A stretch of 64,000 nt of DNA from Escherichia phage I29. The notes beneath the pieces are model-generated. The model saw only the letters and a program-made list of their open reading frames with translations, made no database searches and was not told the DNA's origin. The stretch lies in sequence record ON286975, one strand, 5' to 3'. This document shows positions 18,791 to 31,990 of this stretch, piece after piece. The translations under genes and the position numbers were made by a program. How positions within the stretch are numbered: position 1 is the first letter of the stretch; every line of letters begins with the position of its first letter.

Positions 18791-19030
18791 ATGTACAAGT
18801 CATTCTCAATTTACTCAAGACAGGCGAAACACTACACAGAGATCCTGATTACTCAGAAAAAATCTGTAGAAGGTGAGTGGGAATATCACCATAAAATGTT
18901 GCGTCCAGATTGGGTTTTTGATAGACTTATTGCCATGATCCCTCTTGGGGAAGTATACCCTCTGACAGCCCATCGCGATGCTTGGGATTTAATTGATTAC
19001 ATAGATTCATTTAAGGAGCCTAGATTATGA
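18791..19030 (+). CDS. hypothetical protein
   Basis: ATG 18791 after AAGGGGG RBS. Confidence 0.45.
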   Translation: MYKSFSIYSRQAKHYTEILITQKKSVEGEWEYHHKMLRPDWVFDRLIAMIPLGEVYPLTAHRDAWDLIDYIDSFKEPRL

Positions 19031-19428
19031 AGATTGAGATTACTAAAGAAGGTAAGAAAGTGTCCGGCAACTATGCAACAGTAATTCGGGATTTAATGTT
19101 TGAAGCCACCAAGATAGGTACATCTAAAGTTGGTCAAACTGTTAGTGTGAAAAGTAATATCGCCACAGGAGAGAAGGTATTCATTGTGGTCAAAGGGCAG
19201 GATCCTGTGGAAGGAACAGTGGGCCGAGGAGGTTACCTGTGCATTTCTGAAGAGCCTCGTATGCTAGTGGCTGACTCCGCTACTATAGGTGGGAAACGTG
19301 TGTGCGAGGCGGATGAGGTAATGATTATCCAGCCTGTTGACCCAGATGATCCAGCAACTTGGGTGGTAGGAAATGAAATCTTCTCTTTAGAAGAGTTATC
19401 CTTCCCAGCCCCGCGCTCTGTTCAGTAA
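19027..19428 (+). CDS. hypothetical protein
   Basis: 133 aa; ATGA overlap with upstream. Confidence 0.5.
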   Translation: MKIEITKEGKKVSGNYATVIRDLMFEATKIGTSKVGQTVSVKSNIATGEKVFIVVKGQDPVEGTVGRGGYLCISEEPRMLVADSATIGGKRVCEADEVMIIQPVDPDDPATWVVGNEIFSLEELSFPAPRSVQ

Positions 19429-19467
19429 TAATTTATCTTACCAGGGACGGTAGAAGCAGGAGGTAGC

Positions 19468-19701
19468 ATGAAAGTTAAATTTCTTACAGATTTAGGGTAC
19501 CCTTCCTTGGTTGACTGTGTTGGTAAAATTGTGGAAGCAAAACGGCTATCTGCAAACGAGAATGTTGTCCTGGTTAAAGGGAAGGATTTACTAGCTGCAG
19601 GTGCAGAGTCTGGCAGGATCTCTCCTGATTATATGTATTACCTATCTTTAAGTAATCTGCCAGAGCGAGGCGGTAAAGGCCTTGAAGTTGTGGAGGAGTG
19701 A
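19468..19701 (+). CDS. small acidic protein, MKVK-family paralogue
   Basis: MKVKFLTD... VLVKGKDLLAAGA... C-terminal LEVVEE; GGAGG RBS. Confidence 0.5.
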   Translation: MKVKFLTDLGYPSLVDCVGKIVEAKRLSANENVVLVKGKDLLAAGAESGRISPDYMYYLSLSNLPERGGKGLEVVEE

Positions 19702-19706
19702 CAGGT

Positions 19707-20231
19707 ATGCTTCTGATTAACTGGGAAGACCTCTATGGGGACAAAGACCCTGTTGCGTTTGTTGATCGTAGGTGGAGATACACTGAAGAACAACTGGCGG
19801 CAAAAAATTTAACTGCAAAACGCAGAAAGATCATCCAGTGCAAGTACAAATACGCACAGTTTGCTGCAAAAGTGTCTCCACAAATCGAGAGCTTTGTGCT
19901 TAAATTGTATGACGAGTACCTCAAATTCAAATTGGATTTTGTACAGGTGTACCGTGCACAGGTACGACCAGATACCAACATATGTAGATGGAAGGTTGTT
20001 TGTGACGGTAAAGATTTGCCGCTCAGCTTGACAATTGAGTGGCGTTATGGGTATCATGAGTGTGGTCTGTATGATATTTGGGATGTCATTGTAGATCCTG
20101 CTAAGCATCTGAACACAGAGGAGCTGGAATATATCAATAAGGTTATTCTCGATATGTTTTTCAGCTACACCCATGAAAACTCTGAGAAAGAACGGGATAA
20201 TTTTCTTGACACCCTCAGCTGCCATTTGTAG
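19707..20231 (+). CDS. hypothetical protein
   Basis: ATG 19707 after GAGGAG; 175 aa. Confidence 0.5.
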   Translation: MLLINWEDLYGDKDPVAFVDRRWRYTEEQLAAKNLTAKRRKIIQCKYKYAQFAAKVSPQIESFVLKLYDEYLKFKLDFVQVYRAQVRPDTNICRWKVVCDGKDLPLSLTIEWRYGYHECGLYDIWDVIVDPAKHLNTEELEYINKVILDMFFSYTHENSEKERDNFLDTLSCHL

Positions 20232-20261
20232 TATACAATTTAACCTACAAAGGGAGGACCA

Positions 20262-20498
20262 ATGAGTATAAATGTTGTGCTAATAGGTTACCTGGTAATG
20301 TCCGTTATAACAGCGGTATTCTTGACAGGTGTATGCATCGTGTCCAGACGAAGGGTGAAGTTTGATGATTTTATCACCATCATCACTGCTGCACCTTTTT
20401 GGCCTGTTGTTATCTTCATCGTGATAATGTGCCTGGTTGATTACTACAAGAATATCCGTAAGGAGAAAAAGGAGGGTAGGGATGGAGACCGCACCTAA
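20262..20498 (+). CDS. small membrane protein
   Basis: Two hydrophobic segments, basic C-terminus; GGGAGG RBS. Confidence 0.5.
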   Translation: MSINVVLIGYLVMSVITAVFLTGVCIVSRRRVKFDDFITIITAAPFWPVVIFIVIMCLVDYYKNIRKEKKEGRDGDRT

Positions 20499-20634
20499 AA
20501 CTGTTTATACTGTTCTTAAAGAGATTGCGTTCTACGCAGATCTTAGTCAGGCACCTTTATGGGAAAAGAACATGTATTTAAAATGGTGCGTTAATTTAGG
20601 GAGACCTTCCAGTGTTTCAAGCCATGTTTATTGA
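20482..20634 (+). CDS. hypothetical protein
   Basis: ATG 20482 (METAPKTVY) after AAGGAGGG; overlaps upstream 3' end. Confidence 0.3.
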   Translation: METAPKTVYTVLKEIAFYADLSQAPLWEKNMYLKWCVNLGRPSSVSSHVY

Positions 20635-20717
20635 GATGCTATCTGGGGTATTGTTACTGGTAGCCATCTTAGGTGGTGCAGTTCTGATGTATAACTATCT
20701 TGAAAAAGGAGACAGTA

Positions 20718-20903
20718 ATGGCAAAAAATAAATCTTTAGAGCAGGCTGAAAACCTTCTCCACGAGCTGGTAAAGGAGTGGAAAGTCGAATACTCAGATTT
20801 TAATGCACGAGAGGGTGAAGATTATTGGCCTACGGAGCGCTCCGAGGGTGAATGGTATCAAGATTTTATAGAGTGGTTATATCAGACGTGCGATGAGGGG
20901 TGA
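20718..20903 (+). CDS. hypothetical protein
   Basis: ATG 20718 after AAAGGAG. Confidence 0.45.
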   Translation: MAKNKSLEQAENLLHELVKEWKVEYSDFNAREGEDYWPTERSEGEWYQDFIEWLYQTCDEG

Positions 20904-20905
20904 CG

Positions 20906-21370
20906 ATGTTTGTTAAATATGTAAAAACGTGCCTCAACAGCCTTGGCAGAGAGCATTGGTACACCTTGCTTGAAAAAGGAGAAATTTTAACAAAATCTGG
21001 AAAGATAACTTTGATACCTCTTGATAGTAAAGGTAAAGACCCGTCACGACTTGTTATAGATGATTACGTTACAGGTGTGACGTTCGAGGTCTCTGTGGAG
21101 AGGTTAATACGCAGAGCTGGCGGCCCTTATGACCGAAGAGAGTATGTTTTCGATTCCGTTACAGAGATGGGGGAGCATCCGTCTTTAATGTTCAGGATGG
21201 TAATCAGAGATATGAGGTCATCTATAGATAGGATCGTAAAGGACATTAAGGAACCTTTTAGAGTAAAAGTTAAGAAGTTTTTCGATTCTAAGATTAACAT
21301 ACTCGCCGTTGCACTAGGTGTAGTTCAACTTCTGTTAATTTTGCACTATTTTGAACTGTTGTTTAAGTAG
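20906..21370 (+). CDS. hypothetical protein with C-terminal transmembrane helix
   Basis: ATG 20906 after GAGGGG; C-terminal ILAVALGVVQLLLILHYF. Confidence 0.5.
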   Translation: MFVKYVKTCLNSLGREHWYTLLEKGEILTKSGKITLIPLDSKGKDPSRLVIDDYVTGVTFEVSVERLIRRAGGPYDRREYVFDSVTEMGEHPSLMFRMVIRDMRSSIDRIVKDIKEPFRVKVKKFFDSKINILAVALGVVQLLLILHYFELLFK

Positions 21371-21430
21371 TGTGCAACAAGGCACAAAGGATGTGCCATA
21401 ATTAAACAAATTAAGAAAGAGGTAGAGAGA

Positions 21431-21778
21431 ATGTCAAAGATTAAATCGATATTAATGTGGGTAGCTGTTGTGGCTTTTGTAGGATACTGGACTTGGGAAA
21501 CTGAATTAAAAGATATCGGATATACCAGTCTTGAGAGCAAGGCGTGCATTGGCATAACCGATGCATTCAGGCAAAATGCTATGGATCACGAATGTGTCGA
21601 TGCAGATATAGATGAGAAACTGTCTAAGGACAAGGATTTTTACCATGGTCATGCCTTGCTTGATAGTGGTGACACTGTAGAATTCTGGTCGTGGTTCCGT
21701 GAAGATGGAACAATAAAGACAGCAGTAAAGATTTCCAACAAAGAGTTAATGCTGTTGCAGCAGAAGGAGGTGCAATGA
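21431..21778 (+). CDS. membrane-anchored hypothetical protein
   Basis: N-terminal hydrophobic helix; GAGG RBS. Confidence 0.5.
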   Translation: MSKIKSILMWVAVVAFVGYWTWETELKDIGYTSLESKACIGITDAFRQNAMDHECVDADIDEKLSKDKDFYHGHALLDSGDTVEFWSWFREDGTIKTAVKISNKELMLLQQKEVQ

Positions 21779-22062
21779 TTTGGATATCCTACACTGATGG
21801 CACCATGCTGTATACTGCAGGTACCAGATATGAAGTTCAGGAGAACGATAAAAAATTTATCGTAAAAACATTTGACAAGGACGACAACCTTTTGCTAGAA
21901 TTGACTTACAAAGTTGGAGAGGTATCCAATATCCAGTTGGATTGTGGTCATAAAGATAATCCACTCAAAAAACCTGGAGTAGGTAAGGCTTCAGAAGAAC
22001 GTCTGTCTCGTATTGCAGAAAGCGTTTCTCCCCAAAAATCTAAGAAGAGGACTAGAAAATGA
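21775..22062 (+). CDS. hypothetical protein
   Basis: ATGA coupling with upstream ORF. Confidence 0.5.
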   Translation: MIWISYTDGTMLYTAGTRYEVQENDKKFIVKTFDKDDNLLLELTYKVGEVSNIQLDCGHKDNPLKKPGVGKASEERLSRIAESVSPQKSKKRTRK

Positions 22063-22253
22063 AAAACTTACGTTTTAACACTTATTACTACAACACATTG
22101 AATGATTTGTATTATATTGTTCGAAGTAAAAGTCCTGAAACAGTCCTATTCTGCCGCGAACCTTTCAAAGGGGAGGAAGTAGAGTCTGAGATGAATGTTA
22201 GCCAGATCACCTCTTTGTTGCTCTCAGGCGCAATGGAAGAAGCAATATTCTAA
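22059..22253 (+). CDS. hypothetical protein
   Basis: ATGA coupling; 64 aa. Confidence 0.45.
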   Translation: MKNLRFNTYYYNTLNDLYYIVRSKSPETVLFCREPFKGEEVESEMNVSQITSLLLSGAMEEAIF

Positions 22254-22271
22254 ACCAGGCGGGAGGGTTTT

Positions 22272-22457
22272 ATGAAGCACTATTGCCTGTCTGGTAGAAT
22301 GGGTGCAGATTGTGATTGGGTTTTCTTAAAACTTGTCAGCATTCGAGAGTTCATCCCAGAGGAAGAGCAAGAAAGCGAGCTGATGTCATGGATCAACCAT
22401 TACGGTAACACTTTTCGGCATGTTAAGGTGGAAGAGTTGCCAAGCGAGGCTGATTGA
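22272..22457 (+). CDS. hypothetical protein
   Basis: 61-aa ORF with GGAGGG RBS. Confidence 0.45.
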   Translation: MKHYCLSGRMGADCDWVFLKLVSIREFIPEEEQESELMSWINHYGNTFRHVKVEELPSEAD

Positions 22458-22459
22458 CT

Positions 22460-22549
22460 ATGATTGCATCAATATTAACGTTTATGGGTGGCGTGGCATT
22501 CGGATTCATTGTTTGCCTGTTTATAGTGATTATGTCTATGCGAGGCTGA
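22460..22549 (+). CDS. small hydrophobic peptide, 29 aa
   Basis: MIASILTFMGGVAFGFIVCLFIVIMSMRG; fills the gap between flanking genes. Confidence 0.35.
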   Translation: MIASILTFMGGVAFGFIVCLFIVIMSMRG

Positions 22550-22552
22550 ATT

Positions 22553-22849
22553 ATGAAACTTTTTGAGTGGTTTAAAAAGTTTAAATATAAAGCTGTAGCC
22601 ATCGTGCCGTGGTCCATTCAGTGGGTTGATGAAGGTGGTCTACCAATACCTGGTGACAAAGATACTGGGTACTGGATTATGATGGAGAACGGGTTTGGAA
22701 AGCGAAAGTATACGTGCACAAACTCTACTCGATCTGCACTTAATAGAGTGCCTGGTTACAAACTTATGGTTGTGTGGAAAATGTCAGGTGTGCCTCCAGC
22801 TAATGCTCAATTTCTTACTGACAATCCGACCACGGTGGAGGGAGATTGA
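22553..22849 (+). CDS. hypothetical protein
   Basis: 98 aa on cluster strand. Confidence 0.5.
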   Translation: MKLFEWFKKFKYKAVAIVPWSIQWVDEGGLPIPGDKDTGYWIMMENGFGKRKYTCTNSTRSALNRVPGYKLMVVWKMSGVPPANAQFLTDNPTTVEGD

Positions 22850-22851
22850 TA

Positions 22852-23133
22852 ATGAAAAAGATTAACAGTGGTGAAGTTGAGTTTAAACTTGTCGGGAAAG
22901 GCACTTACTGGGAAGTTCGTCAAAAGGTATATTTGTTCGGTCTTATTCCCTATTGGTCTAAATTCTACTGGGGAGCTAACGAGTGGGGAAGATACGCCAC
23001 CAAATCAATGGCACTTATTGGTATAGCAGAGTACATTGCAGCCAGAGATAGGGTTGGAGACACTTATTACTATACTGCGGACGATATTCGTAACAGTGTT
23101 TACGTCCCACAACCACCTGATGGAGACCGTTGA
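22852..23133 (+). CDS. hypothetical protein
   Basis: ATG 22852 after GGAGGGAG. Confidence 0.5.
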   Translation: MKKINSGEVEFKLVGKGTYWEVRQKVYLFGLIPYWSKFYWGANEWGRYATKSMALIGIAEYIAARDRVGDTYYYTADDIRNSVYVPQPPDGDR

Positions 23134-23357
23134 TGAAAGTTAAAGTTTTAGATTCAAGCTTCTATATTGGTCAGGAGCCTTTAGTAGGGAAATTGTTTAC
23201 TGCTGTCCCTAACGAAGATTACCCTGACCTTTTAAAAATAAAAGGGGCAGATCTTATTGCCGCTGGTGCATCTCAGGAATGCTTTGACAGTCAGTGGACC
23301 TACAACTTTGCCCTAGGTGAGGATGTAGAGGTAGTGGAGGACGATCATGAAGGTTAA
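23133..23357 (+). CDS. small acidic protein, MKVK-family paralogue
   Basis: MKVKVLDS... KIKGADLIAAGA... DVEVVEDD; coupled to upstream stop. Confidence 0.5.
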   Translation: MKVKVLDSSFYIGQEPLVGKLFTAVPNEDYPDLLKIKGADLIAAGASQECFDSQWTYNFALGEDVEVVEDDHEG

Positions 23358-23601
23358 AATTCTTGATTCTAACGTCTACTTGGGACAATCCTTCCTGAAT
23401 GGAAAGGTCGTTCCTGCGGTATACTTTGAAGGGTTGCCGTGGGATGATCCTGTGCGGCAACATCACAGTTATGTAGGCCACAACGTGGTGTTTATCTTGG
23501 GATCAGACCTGATCACCGCTGGTGCACCTGAATATTATTTCGGGGAAGAGTCCTACTATGCCTTTGGGGTAGGGTCAGATGCAGATATTGTAGAGCTGTG
23601 A
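23347..23601 (+). CDS. small acidic protein, MKVK-family paralogue
   Basis: MKVKILDSNVYLGQ... ILGSDLITAGA... DADIVEL. Confidence 0.5.
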   Translation: MKVKILDSNVYLGQSFLNGKVVPAVYFEGLPWDDPVRQHHSYVGHNVVFILGSDLITAGAPEYYFGEESYYAFGVGSDADIVEL

Positions 23602-23613
23602 TGGGTAACCGTT

Positions 23614-24012
23614 GTGAAAAATAAACTGTTTAAAGTTACAATGAAAATTCGCGGGGCTTGGAGCGTAAAGCAAGGGCGTATTCCAGAATTTGAGAAGGAC
23701 TTCTACGTAGTCTCCACCTCGGAGGAGGCTGCATGCTGGCAGGCTGGCTATGCCTATGCAAGAACCTGGTACGAAGGATACCAGACTGGGGGCTATGACG
23801 GAGAAATTATCAGCAAGGGTGTAGAAGAAATTAATGTGTTGACAAGTGAAAAAGTTTTTGTTATAGTGCATCCAGATTCCAGAGTGAAGCATTACTGGAA
23901 TTCCAGAACAAAAACTTGGACACCGTTTGCAGATTCTGCTACACCACTTTTAAACCAGAAAGCTCTTGATTCTGTCCCAAGCTATGGGGTTGTTGAAGAA
24001 AAGCTAAACTGA
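23614..24012 (+). CDS. hypothetical protein (paralogue of 25819-26214)
   Basis: VIVHPDSRVKHYWNSRTKTWTPF resembles FVMRHPHSNIAYYWDVLNNEWTP. Confidence 0.45.
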   Translation: MKNKLFKVTMKIRGAWSVKQGRIPEFEKDFYVVSTSEEAACWQAGYAYARTWYEGYQTGGYDGEIISKGVEEINVLTSEKVFVIVHPDSRVKHYWNSRTKTWTPFADSATPLLNQKALDSVPSYGVVEEKLN

Positions 24013-24029
24013 AACAGTGAGGTGCCACT

Positions 24030-24320
24030 ATGATGGATTTAGTTCTGAATATTGATAACGCAGGAGAGGTTAAAGACGATGGTGTAACAAGCATGGACCA
24101 GCCATGCCCTGCCAAGATTGACTCAAAATGGACCTATAAGTTTGACGGAGAGATCTTTGCAAATGATGAAAAGGTTGTAGATGCTGCAGCCATTTTGAAC
24201 GCTCTAGGGTACGACCCTGTAAATTCTTTGATCAAGGATCCTGTTGAGTTTGCAGAGTATGTTCGAAAAATGGCAGATCTTGCTGTAGATATTTTAAATA
24301 CTATCGACAACAATCTGTAA
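24030..24320 (+). CDS. acidic hypothetical protein
   Basis: GAGGTG RBS; 96 aa. Confidence 0.5.
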   Translation: MMDLVLNIDNAGEVKDDGVTSMDQPCPAKIDSKWTYKFDGEIFANDEKVVDAAAILNALGYDPVNSLIKDPVEFAEYVRKMADLAVDILNTIDNNL

Positions 24321-24326
24321 AAACTG

Positions 24327-24355
24327 TTGACACAACGCTTCAGATTTAGTATCAT
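24327..24355 (+). promoter_or_regulatory. sigma70-type promoter upstream of HPF homologue
   Basis: TTGACA-17-TATCAT. Confidence 0.5.
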
Positions 24356-24402
24356 TGTTTTCAAAGAGGGTTTGGTTCCCTCTTCTTTAAAAGGAACACG
24401 TT

Positions 24403-24720
24403 ATGCAAATTGAAATCACTGGCAACGTAGAAATCACTGAAGGTATGGTGTCTTTCATTTCCCACAAAATGTCTAAGCTGGAGCGTTTGCACCCCTCTGC
24501 CAACTATGCACGTGTGAGTGTAAAAGTTGAAAATGATCACCAGGAAGTTATGGCGTTCATTTTTGACAATTCTGGAAAAGAAGTTATTGCCAAAGCTAAA
24601 GGCAGTGATGCTTACGAGGCAACTGACCGTATGGTAGATGTTGCAGCACGTCAGCTGGCTAAATGTGGTGGAAAGAAAGGTAAGGGGAAAGGCAAAGTAA
24701 AGATTGACTTTGGAGAATGA
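24403..24720 (+). CDS. hpf: ribosome hibernation promoting factor / RaiA (S30AE) homologue
   Basis: MQIEITGNVEITEGM...KLERL...AKGSDAYEATDRMVDVAARQLAK aligns with E. coli HPF MQLNITGNNVEITEA...KLEQ...AEGQDMYAAIDGLIDKLARQLTK; Lys-rich tail. Confidence 0.8.
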   Translation: MQIEITGNVEITEGMVSFISHKMSKLERLHPSANYARVSVKVENDHQEVMAFIFDNSGKEVIAKAKGSDAYEATDRMVDVAARQLAKCGGKKGKGKGKVKIDFGE

Positions 24721-24729
24721 GGTGCTACA

Positions 24730-24831
24730 ATGGGTGTGATTAAGAAATTAGTCCCAAATGTAGAGATTGCATGCTTTGAAATTATGTTTGCAATCGCAGT
24801 TGTAGTTAATGTGTTAGGTTACGGCTATTAA
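24730..24831 (+). CDS. small hydrophobic peptide, 33 aa
   Basis: MGVIKKLVPNVEIACFEIMFAIAVVVNVLGYGY; GAGGTG RBS just after HPF stop. Confidence 0.4.
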   Translation: MGVIKKLVPNVEIACFEIMFAIAVVVNVLGYGY

Positions 24832-24857
24832 TATCAAATAATTGAGGAGACCTCTAA

Positions 24858-25127
24858 ATGAAAATTAAATTATTCAAAACTGAGCTGGCAGACAAAAACT
24901 GTGGACTGGTTGAAGGCATGATTGTCGAAGCACAACCAGTTGACTATATGAAGGTGGTTCGTGATGCCCTGGGTGAAGGTTTTGATCTGATGGAGCCAGC
25001 TCTGCGCGAAGATGTTATCGAGATGGCTAAAAAGCACACACCTGAAGGTTTGGTGGTGTTTGTTGCACCGGGTAACGGAGAAGAGTTGATTGTAACTCCT
25101 GATGTGTATGAGATTGTAGAGGAATAA
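24858..25127 (+). CDS. small acidic protein, MKVK-family paralogue
   Basis: MKIKLFKTEL... C-terminal VYEIVEE; GGAGA RBS. Confidence 0.5.
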   Translation: MKIKLFKTELADKNCGLVEGMIVEAQPVDYMKVVRDALGEGFDLMEPALREDVIEMAKKHTPEGLVVFVAPGNGEELIVTPDVYEIVEE

Positions 25128-25218
25128 TCCTGCTTGGATTAGCATACTTCCTCGATAAGGAAGATTTGTAATTATTTGTGGGAAAGGAATCCCAATCTCT
25201 TACCAGAGGTGATACTAT

Positions 25219-25482
25219 ATGATTGTTTATTTTAAAACTTCAGGTGGATACCCTGATTCTCAAAGCTTGATCGGAAAAACGTGCACAGCATACTCACCTC
25301 TTGATGAGGAGGTAAGCGATATTCTACGAAATATGTATCGGATTGATCCCCAAGAAGCTTTTGATCAAAACCTTGTATTTGTCAAGGGCTCAGACATGAA
25401 GTCTTTGGGAGCATTCCCTGAAGCAGATGATGATGCCGTTTATTCGTTCATGACCCCTTTTGAAGCTATGGTTGTTGGGTGA
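25219..25482 (+). CDS. small acidic protein, MKVK-family paralogue
   Basis: LVFVKGSDMKSLGAFPE core shared with family. Confidence 0.5.
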   Translation: MIVYFKTSGGYPDSQSLIGKTCTAYSPLDEEVSDILRNMYRIDPQEAFDQNLVFVKGSDMKSLGAFPEADDDAVYSFMTPFEAMVVG

Positions 25483-25486
25483 TAAT

Positions 25487-25819
25487 ATGAAAGTACGCTT
25501 TATTGGTGAAACAATTCCTGTGCATCTCCGGTCGCCTGAAGATTCTGCGGATCTTGCATCTCAGAAGGCGAGAGGTTATGATAAGAAAGTAATCTCAACC
25601 GATGTAGAACTTGAGGCTACTAGTCTACCTGACCCTGCTGCATTCTTCAATCATTATGGATACTATTTCAGCAATCTGATGAATATCGGTGAGCTTGTGT
25701 TTATTAGTGGTGGAGAGATTGTTAGCAAGCTTGGCGGCGATCCAGATGTCTTTCATGAAACCTGTCCTTTTGCATTTGTGGTAGGTTCAGATGTGGAAGT
25801 TATTGAGGAGGTGCGGTAA
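25487..25819 (+). CDS. small acidic protein, MKVK-family paralogue
   Basis: MKVRFIGE... LVFISGGEIVSKLGGDPD... DVEVIEEVR. Confidence 0.5.
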   Translation: MKVRFIGETIPVHLRSPEDSADLASQKARGYDKKVISTDVELEATSLPDPAAFFNHYGYYFSNLMNIGELVFISGGEIVSKLGGDPDVFHETCPFAFVVGSDVEVIEEVR

Positions 25820-26214
25820 TGGTAAGCCTATACCGTGTTGAGTATAGCTCAGATACTGTATACAACGTAAGAAGCAAAGATCGCAGCGACAGAGTGCAAG
25901 AAATGTATGTTCTTGCCGACAGTCCGTTATCTGCAGCGTTCAAGGCAGGGGCTCTTGCATCTCGTTGGAAATTTGAAGGCGGATCTTTCTATGAAGAAAC
26001 CCTTGAAGATTCTGTTGTTATTTCTTCTGTAGAGGTTTCAGACGACTACGAAGGGAAAAAGTTCGTAATGCGGCACCCACACAGCAACATTGCGTACTAC
26101 TGGGATGTTCTGAACAACGAGTGGACCCCAGATCTTCAGAAGGCTACTGTGCTAACACCGTTTTTGGCAGATAAGTTCCCACCAGAAGGTAATTTATCCG
26201 CACTGTTTCAGTAA
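25819..26214 (+). CDS. hypothetical protein (paralogue of 23614-24012)
   Basis: Shared YYW...WTP motif; ATG overlaps upstream stop. Confidence 0.5.
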   Translation: MVSLYRVEYSSDTVYNVRSKDRSDRVQEMYVLADSPLSAAFKAGALASRWKFEGGSFYEETLEDSVVISSVEVSDDYEGKKFVMRHPHSNIAYYWDVLNNEWTPDLQKATVLTPFLADKFPPEGNLSALFQ

Positions 26215-26232
26215 TTTTCTTGCACACAGGTG

Positions 26233-26261
26233 TTGACAACGCCAACCCTGTGTGAAATAAT
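26233..26261 (+). promoter_or_regulatory. sigma70-type promoter (extended -10)
   Basis: TTGACA-17-AATAAT with upstream TG. Confidence 0.4.
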
Positions 26262-26293
26262 ACCTTCATCTTAACAAGACAGGAGACCGATTG

Positions 26294-26551
26294 ATGAAGA
26301 TTAAATTGAAAAACCTTGAAACGGCAGAGATTCAGGACGGTGTTGATTTCCGTTCTAAAGATGGTGACATCTTAGAGGTAAATATTCCAACCTACGAGCT
26401 GATTAAAGGTTTTGGCAACGTTCCGGAAGAGGATATTACAGAAATTCTTATGATGTTGATTCTTGACGGAACTGTGTTTGTAGGTGAAGGTGAGAACGCT
26501 ATTGCAATCCCAGGCCATTTTTATGAAGTAGTTGACGAAGAGGTGCTGTAA
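26294..26551 (+). CDS. small acidic protein, MKVK-family paralogue
   Basis: MKIKLKNLE... C-terminal FYEVVDEEVL; AGGAGA RBS. Confidence 0.5.
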   Translation: MKIKLKNLETAEIQDGVDFRSKDGDILEVNIPTYELIKGFGNVPEEDITEILMMLILDGTVFVGEGENAIAIPGHFYEVVDEEVL

Positions 26552-26902
26552 ATGAAAGTAGAAATTACCGGTTTTGATGTGAATGTGGTTCCGGAAGATA
26601 TTTTAGCTAAACTTCCAGAAGGTTTTGGTAACGGCGTTGTGGTGGATGCTGTTCCTCCTACCAAAGACATTCTGCTGCAGTATGGTGTAGCAGAGGAAGA
26701 TGTCGATAAAGTTCTTACAATGATGGCAATCGATCGTGTTGTCGTTGTTAAAGGTCTCGATAATTTTGAGAGTGATCCCCTGATTATTCGTGGAGATGAC
26801 TACAAAATCATCGATAATGAAGGCCAAGAGTTCTATGAACCTTGTGCAGAAGATATTCTTAACTTATTACTGGAAGCAGGTACCGAAGAGGAGGACGAAT
26901 AA
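26552..26902 (+). CDS. small acidic protein, MKVK-family paralogue
   Basis: MKVEITGFD... VVVVKGLDNF...; acidic tail. Confidence 0.5.
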   Translation: MKVEITGFDVNVVPEDILAKLPEGFGNGVVVDAVPPTKDILLQYGVAEEDVDKVLTMMAIDRVVVVKGLDNFESDPLIIRGDDYKIIDNEGQEFYEPCAEDILNLLLEAGTEEEDE

Positions 26903-27231
26903 TGAAGATTGACCCGTTACTGAAGGCTCGTGCAGAAAAAGCGTACACCATTAAGCTGACCAACCTGGTTCCTACTTGTCATCCAGATGTAGGTTGGCCT
27001 GAAGGTCTGGTAGAGGGGACTGTAACAGCTGCATACCTCCCTAACATCAAATACCTTATGGAAATCTTGGAGCTGGATGAGGAAACGGCAGAAGAGTTAC
27101 AGTTGGACATGAAACAAAGTGGGACTCTGGTTATTCACGGGTGGTATAATACTAAAGACGCAGAAGACCCTCTTGTAACTTCTAATCTGGCATATGAAAT
27201 CTTAGGACCTTTGAACCTGGGGGAAGACTAA
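26902..27231 (+). CDS. small acidic protein
   Basis: ATGA coupling; 109 aa. Confidence 0.5.
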   Translation: MKIDPLLKARAEKAYTIKLTNLVPTCHPDVGWPEGLVEGTVTAAYLPNIKYLMEILELDEETAEELQLDMKQSGTLVIHGWYNTKDAEDPLVTSNLAYEILGPLNLGED

Positions 27232-27524
27232 TGAAAGATCTGGTTAAGATTAAGATTAAGATTAAAGATACCAACGGCGAACTCAGCCATTTTGGAATTA
27301 ATGATGGTGACGAGCTGATCGCACACCTTCCTACCAAGGAAGTTGTAAGCAAGGCGGTTGCCGGAGAAGAAGATGCAATGCAGGCTGCAGGTGTGGATGA
27401 AAACTATGTAGCCATGTGCATGTGCCGAGATCAGGTTGTTCTGTATAAAGCGTATCGACCAAACGGAGCCACGGAGTGGCTTGTATTCCGACCAGAAGGA
27501 TATGAAATCTTAGAGGCACTATGA
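27231..27524 (+). CDS. small acidic protein
   Basis: ATGA coupling; MKDLVKIKIKIKD...; C-terminal YEILEAL. Confidence 0.5.
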   Translation: MKDLVKIKIKIKDTNGELSHFGINDGDELIAHLPTKEVVSKAVAGEEDAMQAAGVDENYVAMCMCRDQVVLYKAYRPNGATEWLVFRPEGYEILEAL

Positions 27525-27613
27525 TAAATCTTGCCAAGGTTGCAACGGCACTATTAATTATTTGCTGGTCAGTAACCTTAACACTGTGTCTTGTATTTCA
27601 GTAAGGTGCTTGT

Positions 27614-29008: not shown

Positions 29009-29308
29009 ATGTCTACAAAGGCGGCTAAATACTCTTACATGCCATCAACCTCTGCAGAGGTAGACTTTAGTTTCGATGTGTTTCCACTGTTTGAGGTGGT
29101 TCTGGCATACCCAACAATACTATCTACTCCTGAATCACTTGTGCCTGTTAAGTTGCAGAACGCTATGCATTCTATGCACTACAACAATAAATGTAGGCAC
29201 AGATGGTGTCAGGACGAGGAAAAAGATTTGGATAGTTTGAGAGATTTTGACAGTCACCTTTTGACACCTTTCAGCTACTCCAACCTTGATAAGCCCTCAT
29301 GGGTATAG
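29009..29308 (+). CDS. hypothetical protein
   Basis: ATG 29009 after GAGGTGG. Confidence 0.45.
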   Translation: MSTKAAKYSYMPSTSAEVDFSFDVFPLFEVVLAYPTILSTPESLVPVKLQNAMHSMHYNNKCRHRWCQDEEKDLDSLRDFDSHLLTPFSYSNLDKPSWV

Positions 29309-30850: not shown

Positions 30851-31990
30851 CATACTCTACCTGTCTGATCAATTTCCCCAACCACATCCTCCATATTTTC
30901 CCTGTCTGTACTACCCCTGCCCCGCCGTGAGTCCCGTCATATCTGGCTTTCCAGCAAATATCACACCCACAAATATCATTGCCTGAAGAGGGTTTCATCT
31001 CATAATATATGCCTTACCTGAAGAGCGCTTCATACACCACGTAATTTTTTTTTTAATTGACCCCCTCCCCGCCGCTGGAGAGGTTGGCTTTTCCCACACA
31101 GACCTGAAGAGTCAGCCAGAAATATCTGAACAGGCCCAATTCTACCACGATTTTGACCTGACCTACAGGAGTGCTGCCAGGCGGACGAAATGGGAATCAT
31201 TCTCATTCTTATAACAATTCTCAAATATCGAGGCAGTGAGGCAAATTAATAGGTGAGGCCGTTCACACAATGGCACAACATTTGCAACCTATCTTGTGGG
31301 AGTGAATGAGAATACCTATCATTGTGAGAATAGTTATCATTACGGGCAATTTAACATAATACCCATTATGCGCACCGCTGGTGATACATACAGGGAAAAT
31401 ATGGAGGATGTGGTTGGGGAAATTGATCAGACAGGTAGAGTATGCATACTCTACCTGTCTGATCAATTTCCCCAACCACATCCTCCATATTTTCCCTGTC
31501 TGTACTACCCCTGCCCCGCCGTGAGTCCCGTCATATCTGGCTTTCCAGCAAATATCACACCCACAAATATCATTGCCTGAAGAGGGTTTCATCTCATAAT
31601 ATATGCCTTACCTGAAGAGCGCTTCATACACCACGTAATTTTTTTTTTAATTGACCCCCTCCCCGCCGCTGGAGAGGTTGGCTTTTCCCACACAGACCTG
31701 AAGAGTCAGCCAGAAATATCTGAACAGGCCCAATTCTACCACGATTTTGACCTGACCTACAGGAGTGCTGCCAGGCGGACGAAATGGGAATCATTCTCAT
31801 TCTTATAACAATTCTCAAATATCGAGGCAGTGAGGCAAATTAATAGGTGAGGCCGTTCACACAATGGCACAACATTTGCAACCTATCTTGTGGGAGTGAA
31901 TGAGAATACCTATCATTGTGAGAATAGTTATCATTACGGGCAATTTAACATAATACCCATTATGCGCACCGCTGGTGATACATACAGGGA
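30851..31990. repeat. tandem direct repeat, 594-bp unit x 1.9 copies
   Basis: 30851-31444 is repeated at 31445-31990 with identical sequence where compared; unit contains three CCTGAAGAG motifs and a T10 run. Confidence 0.9.
31393..31496. repeat. perfect 104-bp palindrome at the tandem-repeat junction
   Basis: gggaaaatatggaggatgtggttggggaaattgatcagacaggtagagtatg is immediately followed by its exact reverse complement. Confidence 0.9.

Follow-up and report, generated by a model that had tools for sequence, protein, structure and literature searches.

Two conserved families of small acidic proteins in rV5-like coliphages include members of a gene cassette required on a clinical Escherichia coli strain

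Phage inhibitors such as Ocr, Arn, Gp5.9, and the acidic anti-CRISPR proteins are small, strongly acidic, expressed early in infection, dispensable in the laboratory, and specific in the hosts on which they act. An array of 12 genes, located between positions 19,468 and 27,524 of a 64,000-nucleotide stretch of DNA from Escherichia phage I29 (sequence record ON286975; hereafter called the window), encodes proteins that are likewise small, acidic, and seemingly accessory. The two groups show no sequence relationship in Pfam, however, and their likeness is one of general description. The array proteins form undescribed families, here termed A, B, and C, that provide a fresh example of a familiar type, the phage accessory arrays of small proteins. 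In transposon data from a near-identical phage, one cassette of three such genes is required on a clinical strain of E. coli.

By sequence comparison, the whole window belongs to Vequintavirus, the genus of the rV5-like coliphages. Many genomes of these E. coli myoviruses (such as HdK5, CM1, and CarlMeissner) match an 8.6-kb stretch at 97–98% identity, and in their records the array genes all carry the label “hypothetical protein.” For the central part of the array, sensitive blastn finds matches confined to about 118 records, each 93–99% identical. A relative of particular value is Bas54 (MaxBurger; MZ501093), which was subjected to saturating transposon sequencing (Tn-seq) in the HIDEN-SEQ preprint (doi 10.1101/2025.11.20.689424). 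That work compared growth on K-12 and on CFE311, a uropathogenic clinical E. coli isolate, and expressed the outcome as log2 fold change (log2FC). Two Bas54 genes validated as necessary against the CFE311 defence system DS-28, bas54_0063 and bas54_0140, gave values of −7.23 and −5.48, respectively (doi 10.1101/2025.11.20.689424). The second of these has its counterpart close to the array:

29009-29308: ortholog of the anti-DS-28 gene bas54_0140, 3 kb downstream; 99% identical; no Pfam match; member of phrog_12072, whose function is unknown.

This gene is one of the closest known comparisons for the array. Like the array genes, it is a small gene of unknown function in the same arm of the genome and is non-essential on K-12, and its depletion on CFE311 is similar to that of the second cassette described below. 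In contrast to them, it has no similarity to families A, B, or C, belongs to a different PHROG (12072), and has been validated against a cloned system.

The array was dissected by all-vs-all blastp and iterated hidden Markov model (HMM) searches of the 342 window open reading frames (ORFs) of at least 50 amino acids. Each pair was given a Smith-Waterman z-score based on 300 residue shuffles, and leave-one-out searches used profiles from which all sequences sharing over 50% identity with the target had been excluded. An earlier note on this DNA had listed the ORFs below together with 30002, and all of these are present on the plus strand where it placed them; the records of Gotham, MaxBurger, and rV5 have matching gene calls. 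By tblastn, the proteins bas54_0146-0159 and 0166 are 97–100% identical to those of the window genes. The members, named by their first position, are as follows:

19468..19701, plus strand: family A, 77 amino acids, the solitary copy; ortholog of rV5 gp122 and bas54_0166; phrog_5009 at an expect value (E) of 8e-36; blastp to 23133 E 1e-5; leave-one-out E 7e-21.
23133..23357, plus strand: family A, 74 amino acids, gene 1 of cassette 1 (A-A-C); bas54_0159.
23347..23601, plus strand: family A, 84 amino acids, gene 2 of cassette 1; bas54_0158; overlaps 23133 by 11 nucleotides.
23614..24012, plus strand: family C, gene 3 of cassette 1; bas54_0157; 132 amino acids from a GTG start or 123 from the ATG at 23641 (the Bas54 annotation); phrog_7379.
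24858..25127, plus strand: family B, 89 amino acids; bas54_0153; iterative HMM E 4e-4, leave-one-out E 2e-3.
25219..25482, plus strand: family A, 87 amino acids with a helical insert, gene 1 of cassette 2; bas54_0152 (100% identical); HMM E 1e-6, leave-one-out E 1e-10.
25487..25819, plus strand: family A, 110 amino acids with N-terminal and central insertions, gene 2 of cassette 2; bas54_0151; HMM E 4e-5, leave-one-out E 2e-6.
25819..26214, plus strand: family C, 131 amino acids, gene 3 of cassette 2; bas54_0150; its start shares one base with the stop of 25487 (TAATG, gap −1).
26294..26551, plus strand: family B, 85 amino acids, which opens a block of four adjoining B genes; bas54_0149.
26552..26902, plus strand: family B, 116 amino acids, net charge −21, acidic C-terminal extension; bas54_0148.
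26902..27231, plus strand: family B, 109 amino acids; bas54_0147; leave-one-out E 4e-3.
27231..27524, plus strand: family B, 97 amino acids; bas54_0146; leave-one-out E 5e-6.

The A-A-C gene order is thus present twice, as 23133-23347-23614 and as 25219-25487-25819. A duplication of the whole cassette with positional orthology (23133 with 25219, and 23347 with 25487) was considered, and the z-scores do not favour it. The last gene has some peculiarities of its own. The copy of 27231 in this phage carries one additional “KI” unit (MKDLVKIKIKIKDT...) when compared with the common 95-amino-acid form, which is an indel relative to all nine genomes compared below, and the rV5 reference has two genes, gp148 and gp149, in place of its ortholog, as the result of either a frameshift or a sequencing error.

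Paralogy exceeds chance against shuffled controls and in leave-one-out searches, both within A and within B. Within family A (19468, 23133, 23347, 25219, and 25487), z-scores range from 3.2 to 26, with one pair at 0.9. All five genes match the family profile over its full length, and leave-one-out searches recover every member (E 2e-24 to 2e-6; best non-member E at least 0.19). This profile can be written as MKVKxL..GY..vGKvv.A..[insert]..v.i.G.DLi.aGA...F....Y.F..G.E.EvvEE. Family B (24858, 26294, 26552, 26902, and 27231) is more diffuse, with z-scores from 1.3 to 7.7, although each member is found in leave-one-out searches (E 1e-7 to 4e-3) always at rank 5, directly behind its four paralogs, and the best non-member has an E of at least 0.76. 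The two family C proteins, 23614 and 25819, had been noticed earlier as an interleaved pair, and their relationship is firm (E 1e-8, z 15.2). What does not hold is the proposal of a single “MKVK” family, because two profiles emerge, A-vs-B z-scores reach at most 3.0, and no cross-hits appear at E < 0.1. ORF 30002, once listed as a likely member, has a best z-score of 3.4 and no HMM match to A or B; similarly, 19027, 24030, 28033, and 28674 receive no support as added members from HMM searches or shuffle z-scores.

The sequence features that first suggested one family are of unequal value. Most members do begin with an MK(V/I)K strand, whereas the G.DL(I/L)AAGA core is not seen outside family A. 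Tight translational coupling is evident at most junctions, where gaps between genes run from −11 to +5 nucleotides. An acidic C-terminal tail had also been proposed as a shared trait, and the acidity is real: the isoelectric points (pI) of the members lie between 4.05 and 5.4. However, unrelated small proteins encoded nearby are equally acidic, and at six junctions (19701, 23347, 25819, 26552, 26902, and 27231) the last Glu or Gly codons of the upstream gene (GAGGAG or GGAGG) also supply the Shine-Dalgarno sequence for the following gene. Both acidity and the “EE tail” are consequently poor markers of family membership, since part of the motif reflects dual coding.

The Bas54 transposon data provide the clearest clue to function. 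On K-12, none of the 12 orthologs is classed as essential; nine fall into the non-essential class and three (bas54_0151-0153) into the intermediate class (doi 10.1101/2025.11.20.689424). By these published classes, the array is dispensable on a permissive laboratory host. On CFE311, the three genes of cassette 2 behave very differently. Orthologs bas54_0152, 0151, and 0150 (25219, 25487, and 25819) have log2FC values of −7.16, −6.17, and −6.77, with zero reads and an adjusted p reported as 0 (doi 10.1101/2025.11.20.689424). This depletion is as strong as that of the validated anti-DS-28 genes 0063 and 0140. In the same comparison, bas54_0157 (23614) has a log2FC of −2.14 (adjusted p 0), bas54_0153 (24858) has a value of −2.78 that is not significant, and the remaining A and B genes are unchanged (doi 10.1101/2025.11.20.689424). 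Insertions directly upstream of affected genes are without effect in two cases, 0141 before 0140 (−0.32) and 0158 before 0157 (−0.30), so the transposon appears to be non-polar at these two junctions and not generally polar. In Extended Data Table 8 of the preprint (sheets Data S6 and S7), the sheet “resampling_K-12_vs_CFE303” repeats the command line and numbers of the CFE311 analysis, and the strain comparison is consequently limited to CFE311.

The array is also well conserved. Among nine divergent Vequintavirus genomes it is fully syntenic, and its genes are intact in all nine except for 25219 (eight of nine) and 27231 (an in-frame indel). The ratio of nonsynonymous to synonymous substitution rates (dN/dS) is 0.03–0.16 for every member, which indicates purifying selection, and each block is found in 115–117 of 118 Vequintavirus records. 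Diversifying selection was looked for, and all dN/dS values fall in this low range. The earlier description of a “diversified” array, if taken to mean an ongoing process, is therefore not borne out by sequences that are syntenic and 93–99% identical in about 118 genomes. Rather, synteny, low dN/dS, and near-universal presence indicate that the paralogs are old, that each has been kept by selection, and that they are not diversifying now. Exchange between neighbours does occur, because a 70-amino-acid protein on metagenomic Vequintavirus contigs (P0009) is a hybrid in which the N-terminal half of 23133 is joined to the C-terminal half of 23347 at DLIxAGA. In phage EduardKellenberger (MZ501061), a natural deletion (L013 6240-6725) begins within the glycosidase gene and reaches the 3′ terminus of the 23614 ortholog, which removes cassette 1 and retains cassette 2 and the B block.

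The earlier judgement that no known family is represented here has stood up well. Pfam, NCBIfam, and PDB sequence searches with the A, B, and C proteins gave no match; for the SH3 and KOW families of Pfam there is none above the gathering score, and for A members and most B members no Pfam family appears even at E ≤ 1. The same proteins are present in PHROGs, always as “unknown function,” but there they are split into at least eight per-ortholog groups with no record of paralogy or of a common fold. Genes 19468, 23133, and 23347 fall in phrog_5009 (E 1e-32 to 1e-38), and every other member matches its own group end to end (phrog_13920 and 13661 for A; 11868, 12359, 12155, 12457, and 12794 for B; 7379 for C). 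The rV5 genome paper makes no mention of paralogs or duplications, and its supplements gave no match for these gene names.

Family A has a wider distribution than the Vequintavirus genomes alone. Among 5.8 billion clustered proteins, there are 37 clusters of A, 53 of B (at 90% identity), and six of C, nearly all on contigs of about 135 kb. When 1.84 billion representatives were scanned exhaustively with an HMM, family A grew to 44 clusters (50% identity), among them about 35 remote proteins of 63–136 amino acids with the same end-to-end pattern, none with a Pfam domain. Also included are proteins with two or three fused family A domains (P0098, P0101, and P0126), again with no Pfam domain, and by Rosetta-stone logic these fusions support an interaction between A proteins. 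A 75-amino-acid family A protein that is 46% identical to 19468 (P0031) is encoded between antiterminator Q and holin in lambdoid E. coli prophages, and 13 of 5,426 complete genomes carry it (for example, L004 6001-6228 in the prophage of E. coli GCA_014904275.2). This is exactly the accessory, or “moron,” slot between Q and the lysis genes of lambdoid phages. There, however, it is a single gene rather than an array, and none of its neighbours has a counterpart in the window. With a hand-written consensus as the query, tblastn gave additional matches in mEp515, mEp044, and Vibrio phage VnaP. For family B, a match to P0088 initially offered DUF7399 as a lead, but DUF7399 accounts for only the N-terminal half of this natural chimera, the remainder of which is the C-terminal half of 26902, and the lead was ruled out.

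These observations suggest to us, with confidence that is about evenly balanced, that the A, B, and C proteins are host-specific accessory binders, most probably counter-defence factors, and that the A-A-C cassette acts as a unit. Families A and B would be old groups that expanded in tandem to five genes each, encoding acidic single-domain proteins of about 75–115 residues, with the two C genes interleaved. No conserved catalytic-type residues and no enzyme-like family or motif were found in alignments and family searches, and for this reason the proteins are read as binding modules. They would be dispensable, would act by binding host proteins, and would make a difference only on certain hosts, and their most likely role would be to neutralise strain-specific anti-phage defences. 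The cassette formed by 25219 (A), 25487 (A), and 25819 (C) is most likely one unit, plausibly an A/A heterodimer together with C, that is directed against some factor of CFE311, and the other paralogs may be older specificities retained for other hosts. We favour host-specific accessory binding because the domains are small and non-enzymatic, promoters resemble early sigma-70 promoters, no gene is essential in the laboratory, one cassette is required on one strain, an anti-defence gene lies nearby, and a relative occupies a prophage accessory slot.

The genomic setting is consistent with early expression. The plus-strand genes between about 18 and 30.2 kb make up one arm, at the end of which lies a noncoding region where transcription switches strand. 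The array would reside in an arm transcribed by host RNA polymerase and adjoining the genome terminus. Sigma-70-like, early-type promoters in this arm are exclusively on the plus strand, and the rV5 record annotates promoters P144 and P150 in the region of the array. Two predictions stand directly upstream of array genes:

24704..24731, plus strand: sigma-70-like promoter that precedes 24730/24858 and cassette 2; agrees with the consensus at 10 of 12 positions and has an extended −10 TG; phage Gotham has a predicted promoter at the corresponding site.
26233..26261, plus strand: sigma-70-like promoter that precedes the block of four B genes; agrees with the consensus at 11 of 12 positions, with TG; annotated in rV5 as P150.

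The noncoding region between the divergent arms spans about 2.5 kb and contains an exact 546-bp direct repeat (30851-31396 and 31445-31990, 48 nucleotides apart). The homologous region of Bas54 (92,785-95,298) is a terminal-repeat region that short-read assembly has put in the middle of the record (Aionostat preprint, doi 10.1101/2025.04.16.649189), and it contains no tolerated insertions (HIDEN-SEQ, doi 10.1101/2025.11.20.689424). The homology places the array 3–11 kb from the physical end of the genome.

Several facts weigh against a counter-defence role. Low dN/dS and near-universal presence leave no sign of an arms race. For the cassette, the CFE311 Tn-seq results are unreplicated supplementary data that are undiscussed by their authors, and, given the one-base stop/start overlap of 25487 and 25819, an insertion in 25487 could through coupling have a polar effect on 25819. 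Of the two CFE311 defence systems that have been cloned (DS-28 and Gao_Tmn), neither is linked to array genes and both are linked to other genes. The published literature searched yielded no data on inhibition of a defence system by array genes expressed in trans. The suggestion that such arrays serve host takeover or anti-defence is accordingly best described as having real but indirect support. It gains from the depletion of the cassette on CFE311, from the lack of essential genes on K-12, and from the anti-DS-28 gene 3 kb away, whereas nine of the 12 genes count as having no phenotype on CFE311.

How families A and B relate to each other is a separate problem. In structure models, both are predicted with good confidence to be SH3-like five-stranded beta-barrels, and the helical insert of B is predicted to occupy the place of the variable loop of A. 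The closest known structures would be the small SH3-like barrels, such as SH3 itself, KOW/Spt5, PsaE, and the C-terminal domain of retroviral integrase. A family A model aligns with the Shigella phage CM1 ortholog of 25219 at a Foldseek TM score of 0.80, and its structural neighbours among viral models in BFVD (TM 0.7–0.87) are all uncharacterised small phage proteins. One could argue that A and B are nevertheless unrelated, and that their likeness amounts to the MK.K starts and the acidic ends bearing ribosome-binding sites that any small beta-rich phage protein might have, such that no single “MKVK family” exists. No A-vs-B shuffle z-score exceeds 3.0, and the hhalign probability is 2% when narrow, Vequintavirus-only profiles are compared. 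Moreover, the C-terminal EE or GG codons coincide with the downstream Shine-Dalgarno sequence, and the SH3-like barrel is very common among small phage proteins. With the A profile broadened by remote homologs the probability rises to 25% (P 8e-4), over only the N-terminal 28 columns that correspond to the first two strands, which is suggestive but insufficient to merge the families by sequence. We consider separate origins possible, though on the whole doubtful; A and B, plus the third family C, are joined only at the level of the predicted SH3-like fold.

A bolder proposal can be offered only tentatively. Families A and B may together make up a superfamily, not recognised until now, of acidic SH3-like phage proteins that are stand-alone and form hetero-oligomers, in which A-A-C is a three-part inhibitor of an undiscovered E. 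coli immune system that is present in CFE311 and not in K-12. The ten A and B genes would then be a fixed panel with different host targets, single members of which have been traded to lambdoid phages.

A general role in host takeover is an unlikely competitor to host-specific accessory binding. Early in infection, the small acidic proteins would act as binders or decoys to modulate host RNA polymerase, ribosomes, or nucleoid proteins, and the CFE311 requirement would reflect differences in host physiology rather than a dedicated immune system. Factors of this kind fit poorly with genes of which none is essential on K-12 (nine non-essential, three intermediate) and with a requirement seen in one clinical strain only. 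In addition, a pI of about 4 makes KOW-type nucleic-acid binding unlikely, and neither KOW nor SH3 is matched in Pfam.

Quite improbable is the idea that morphogenesis or adsorption on CFE311 depends on cassette 2, which might chaperone or regulate the alternative lateral tail fibres that become essential on this strain. It draws on the CFE311 data, which make the tail-fibre and baseplate genes bas54_0028-0031 essential and others dispensable, and on rV5 ORF133 (20900-21370), which is encoded in the same arm and abundant in virions. However, the array is apart from the structural module (bas54_0005-0041), in another transcription unit and among early-type promoters, no array protein is among the virion proteins listed by mass spectrometry in the rV5 paper, and lambdoid prophages, whose tails are quite different, carry a lone family A homolog. 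The least credible proposal, that the array consists of functionless leftover duplicates or ORFan filler, can point to the absence of essential genes on K-12 and to EduardKellenberger, a natural phage without cassette 1, but selection (dN/dS 0.03–0.16, nearly all copies intact, presence in 115–117 of 118 records) and the strong Tn-seq depletion on CFE311 essentially refute it.

Other features of the region have less bearing on these questions. No tRNA or Rfam RNA was found from 18 to 34 kb, and RNA-based explanations were dropped. A recognisable gene is situated within the array:

24403-24720, mid-array: ribosome hibernation factor (HPF/RaiA), PF02482, E 1.8e-12.

This gene has its own strong sigma-70-like promoter at 24327-24355 and is non-essential in Bas54 (doi 10.1101/2025.11.20.689424). 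Window positions from about 20900 to 22850 are missing from Bas54, in which the orthologs skip from 20900 to 22852, and are present in other Vequintaviruses. Its first gene, at 20900-21370, bears the annotation HNH homing endonuclease in some relatives and virion structural protein in rV5 (ORF133), where virion mass spectrometry detects it in abundance. Finally, 18 GenBank records labelled “Campylobacter phage” (MG0656xx, host C. jejuni) are 97–99% identical to 19000-27600 and are probably mislabelled or contaminating coliphages.

The rV5-like phages are broad-host-range coliphages used for therapy and biocontrol, and about one-third of their genome consists of unannotated small genes. Twelve such genes can now be ordered into two or three families with a predicted fold and a repeated A-A-C cassette, and one cassette can be tied to a strain-specific requirement that was observed experimentally but not taken further in the original study. 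The question that results is which feature of CFE311 makes bas54_0150-0152 indispensable. If the target does prove to be a defence system, the cassette would represent a new family of inhibitors and possibly reveal a new system, and there would be a rationale for screening the other nine paralogs against libraries of defence systems.

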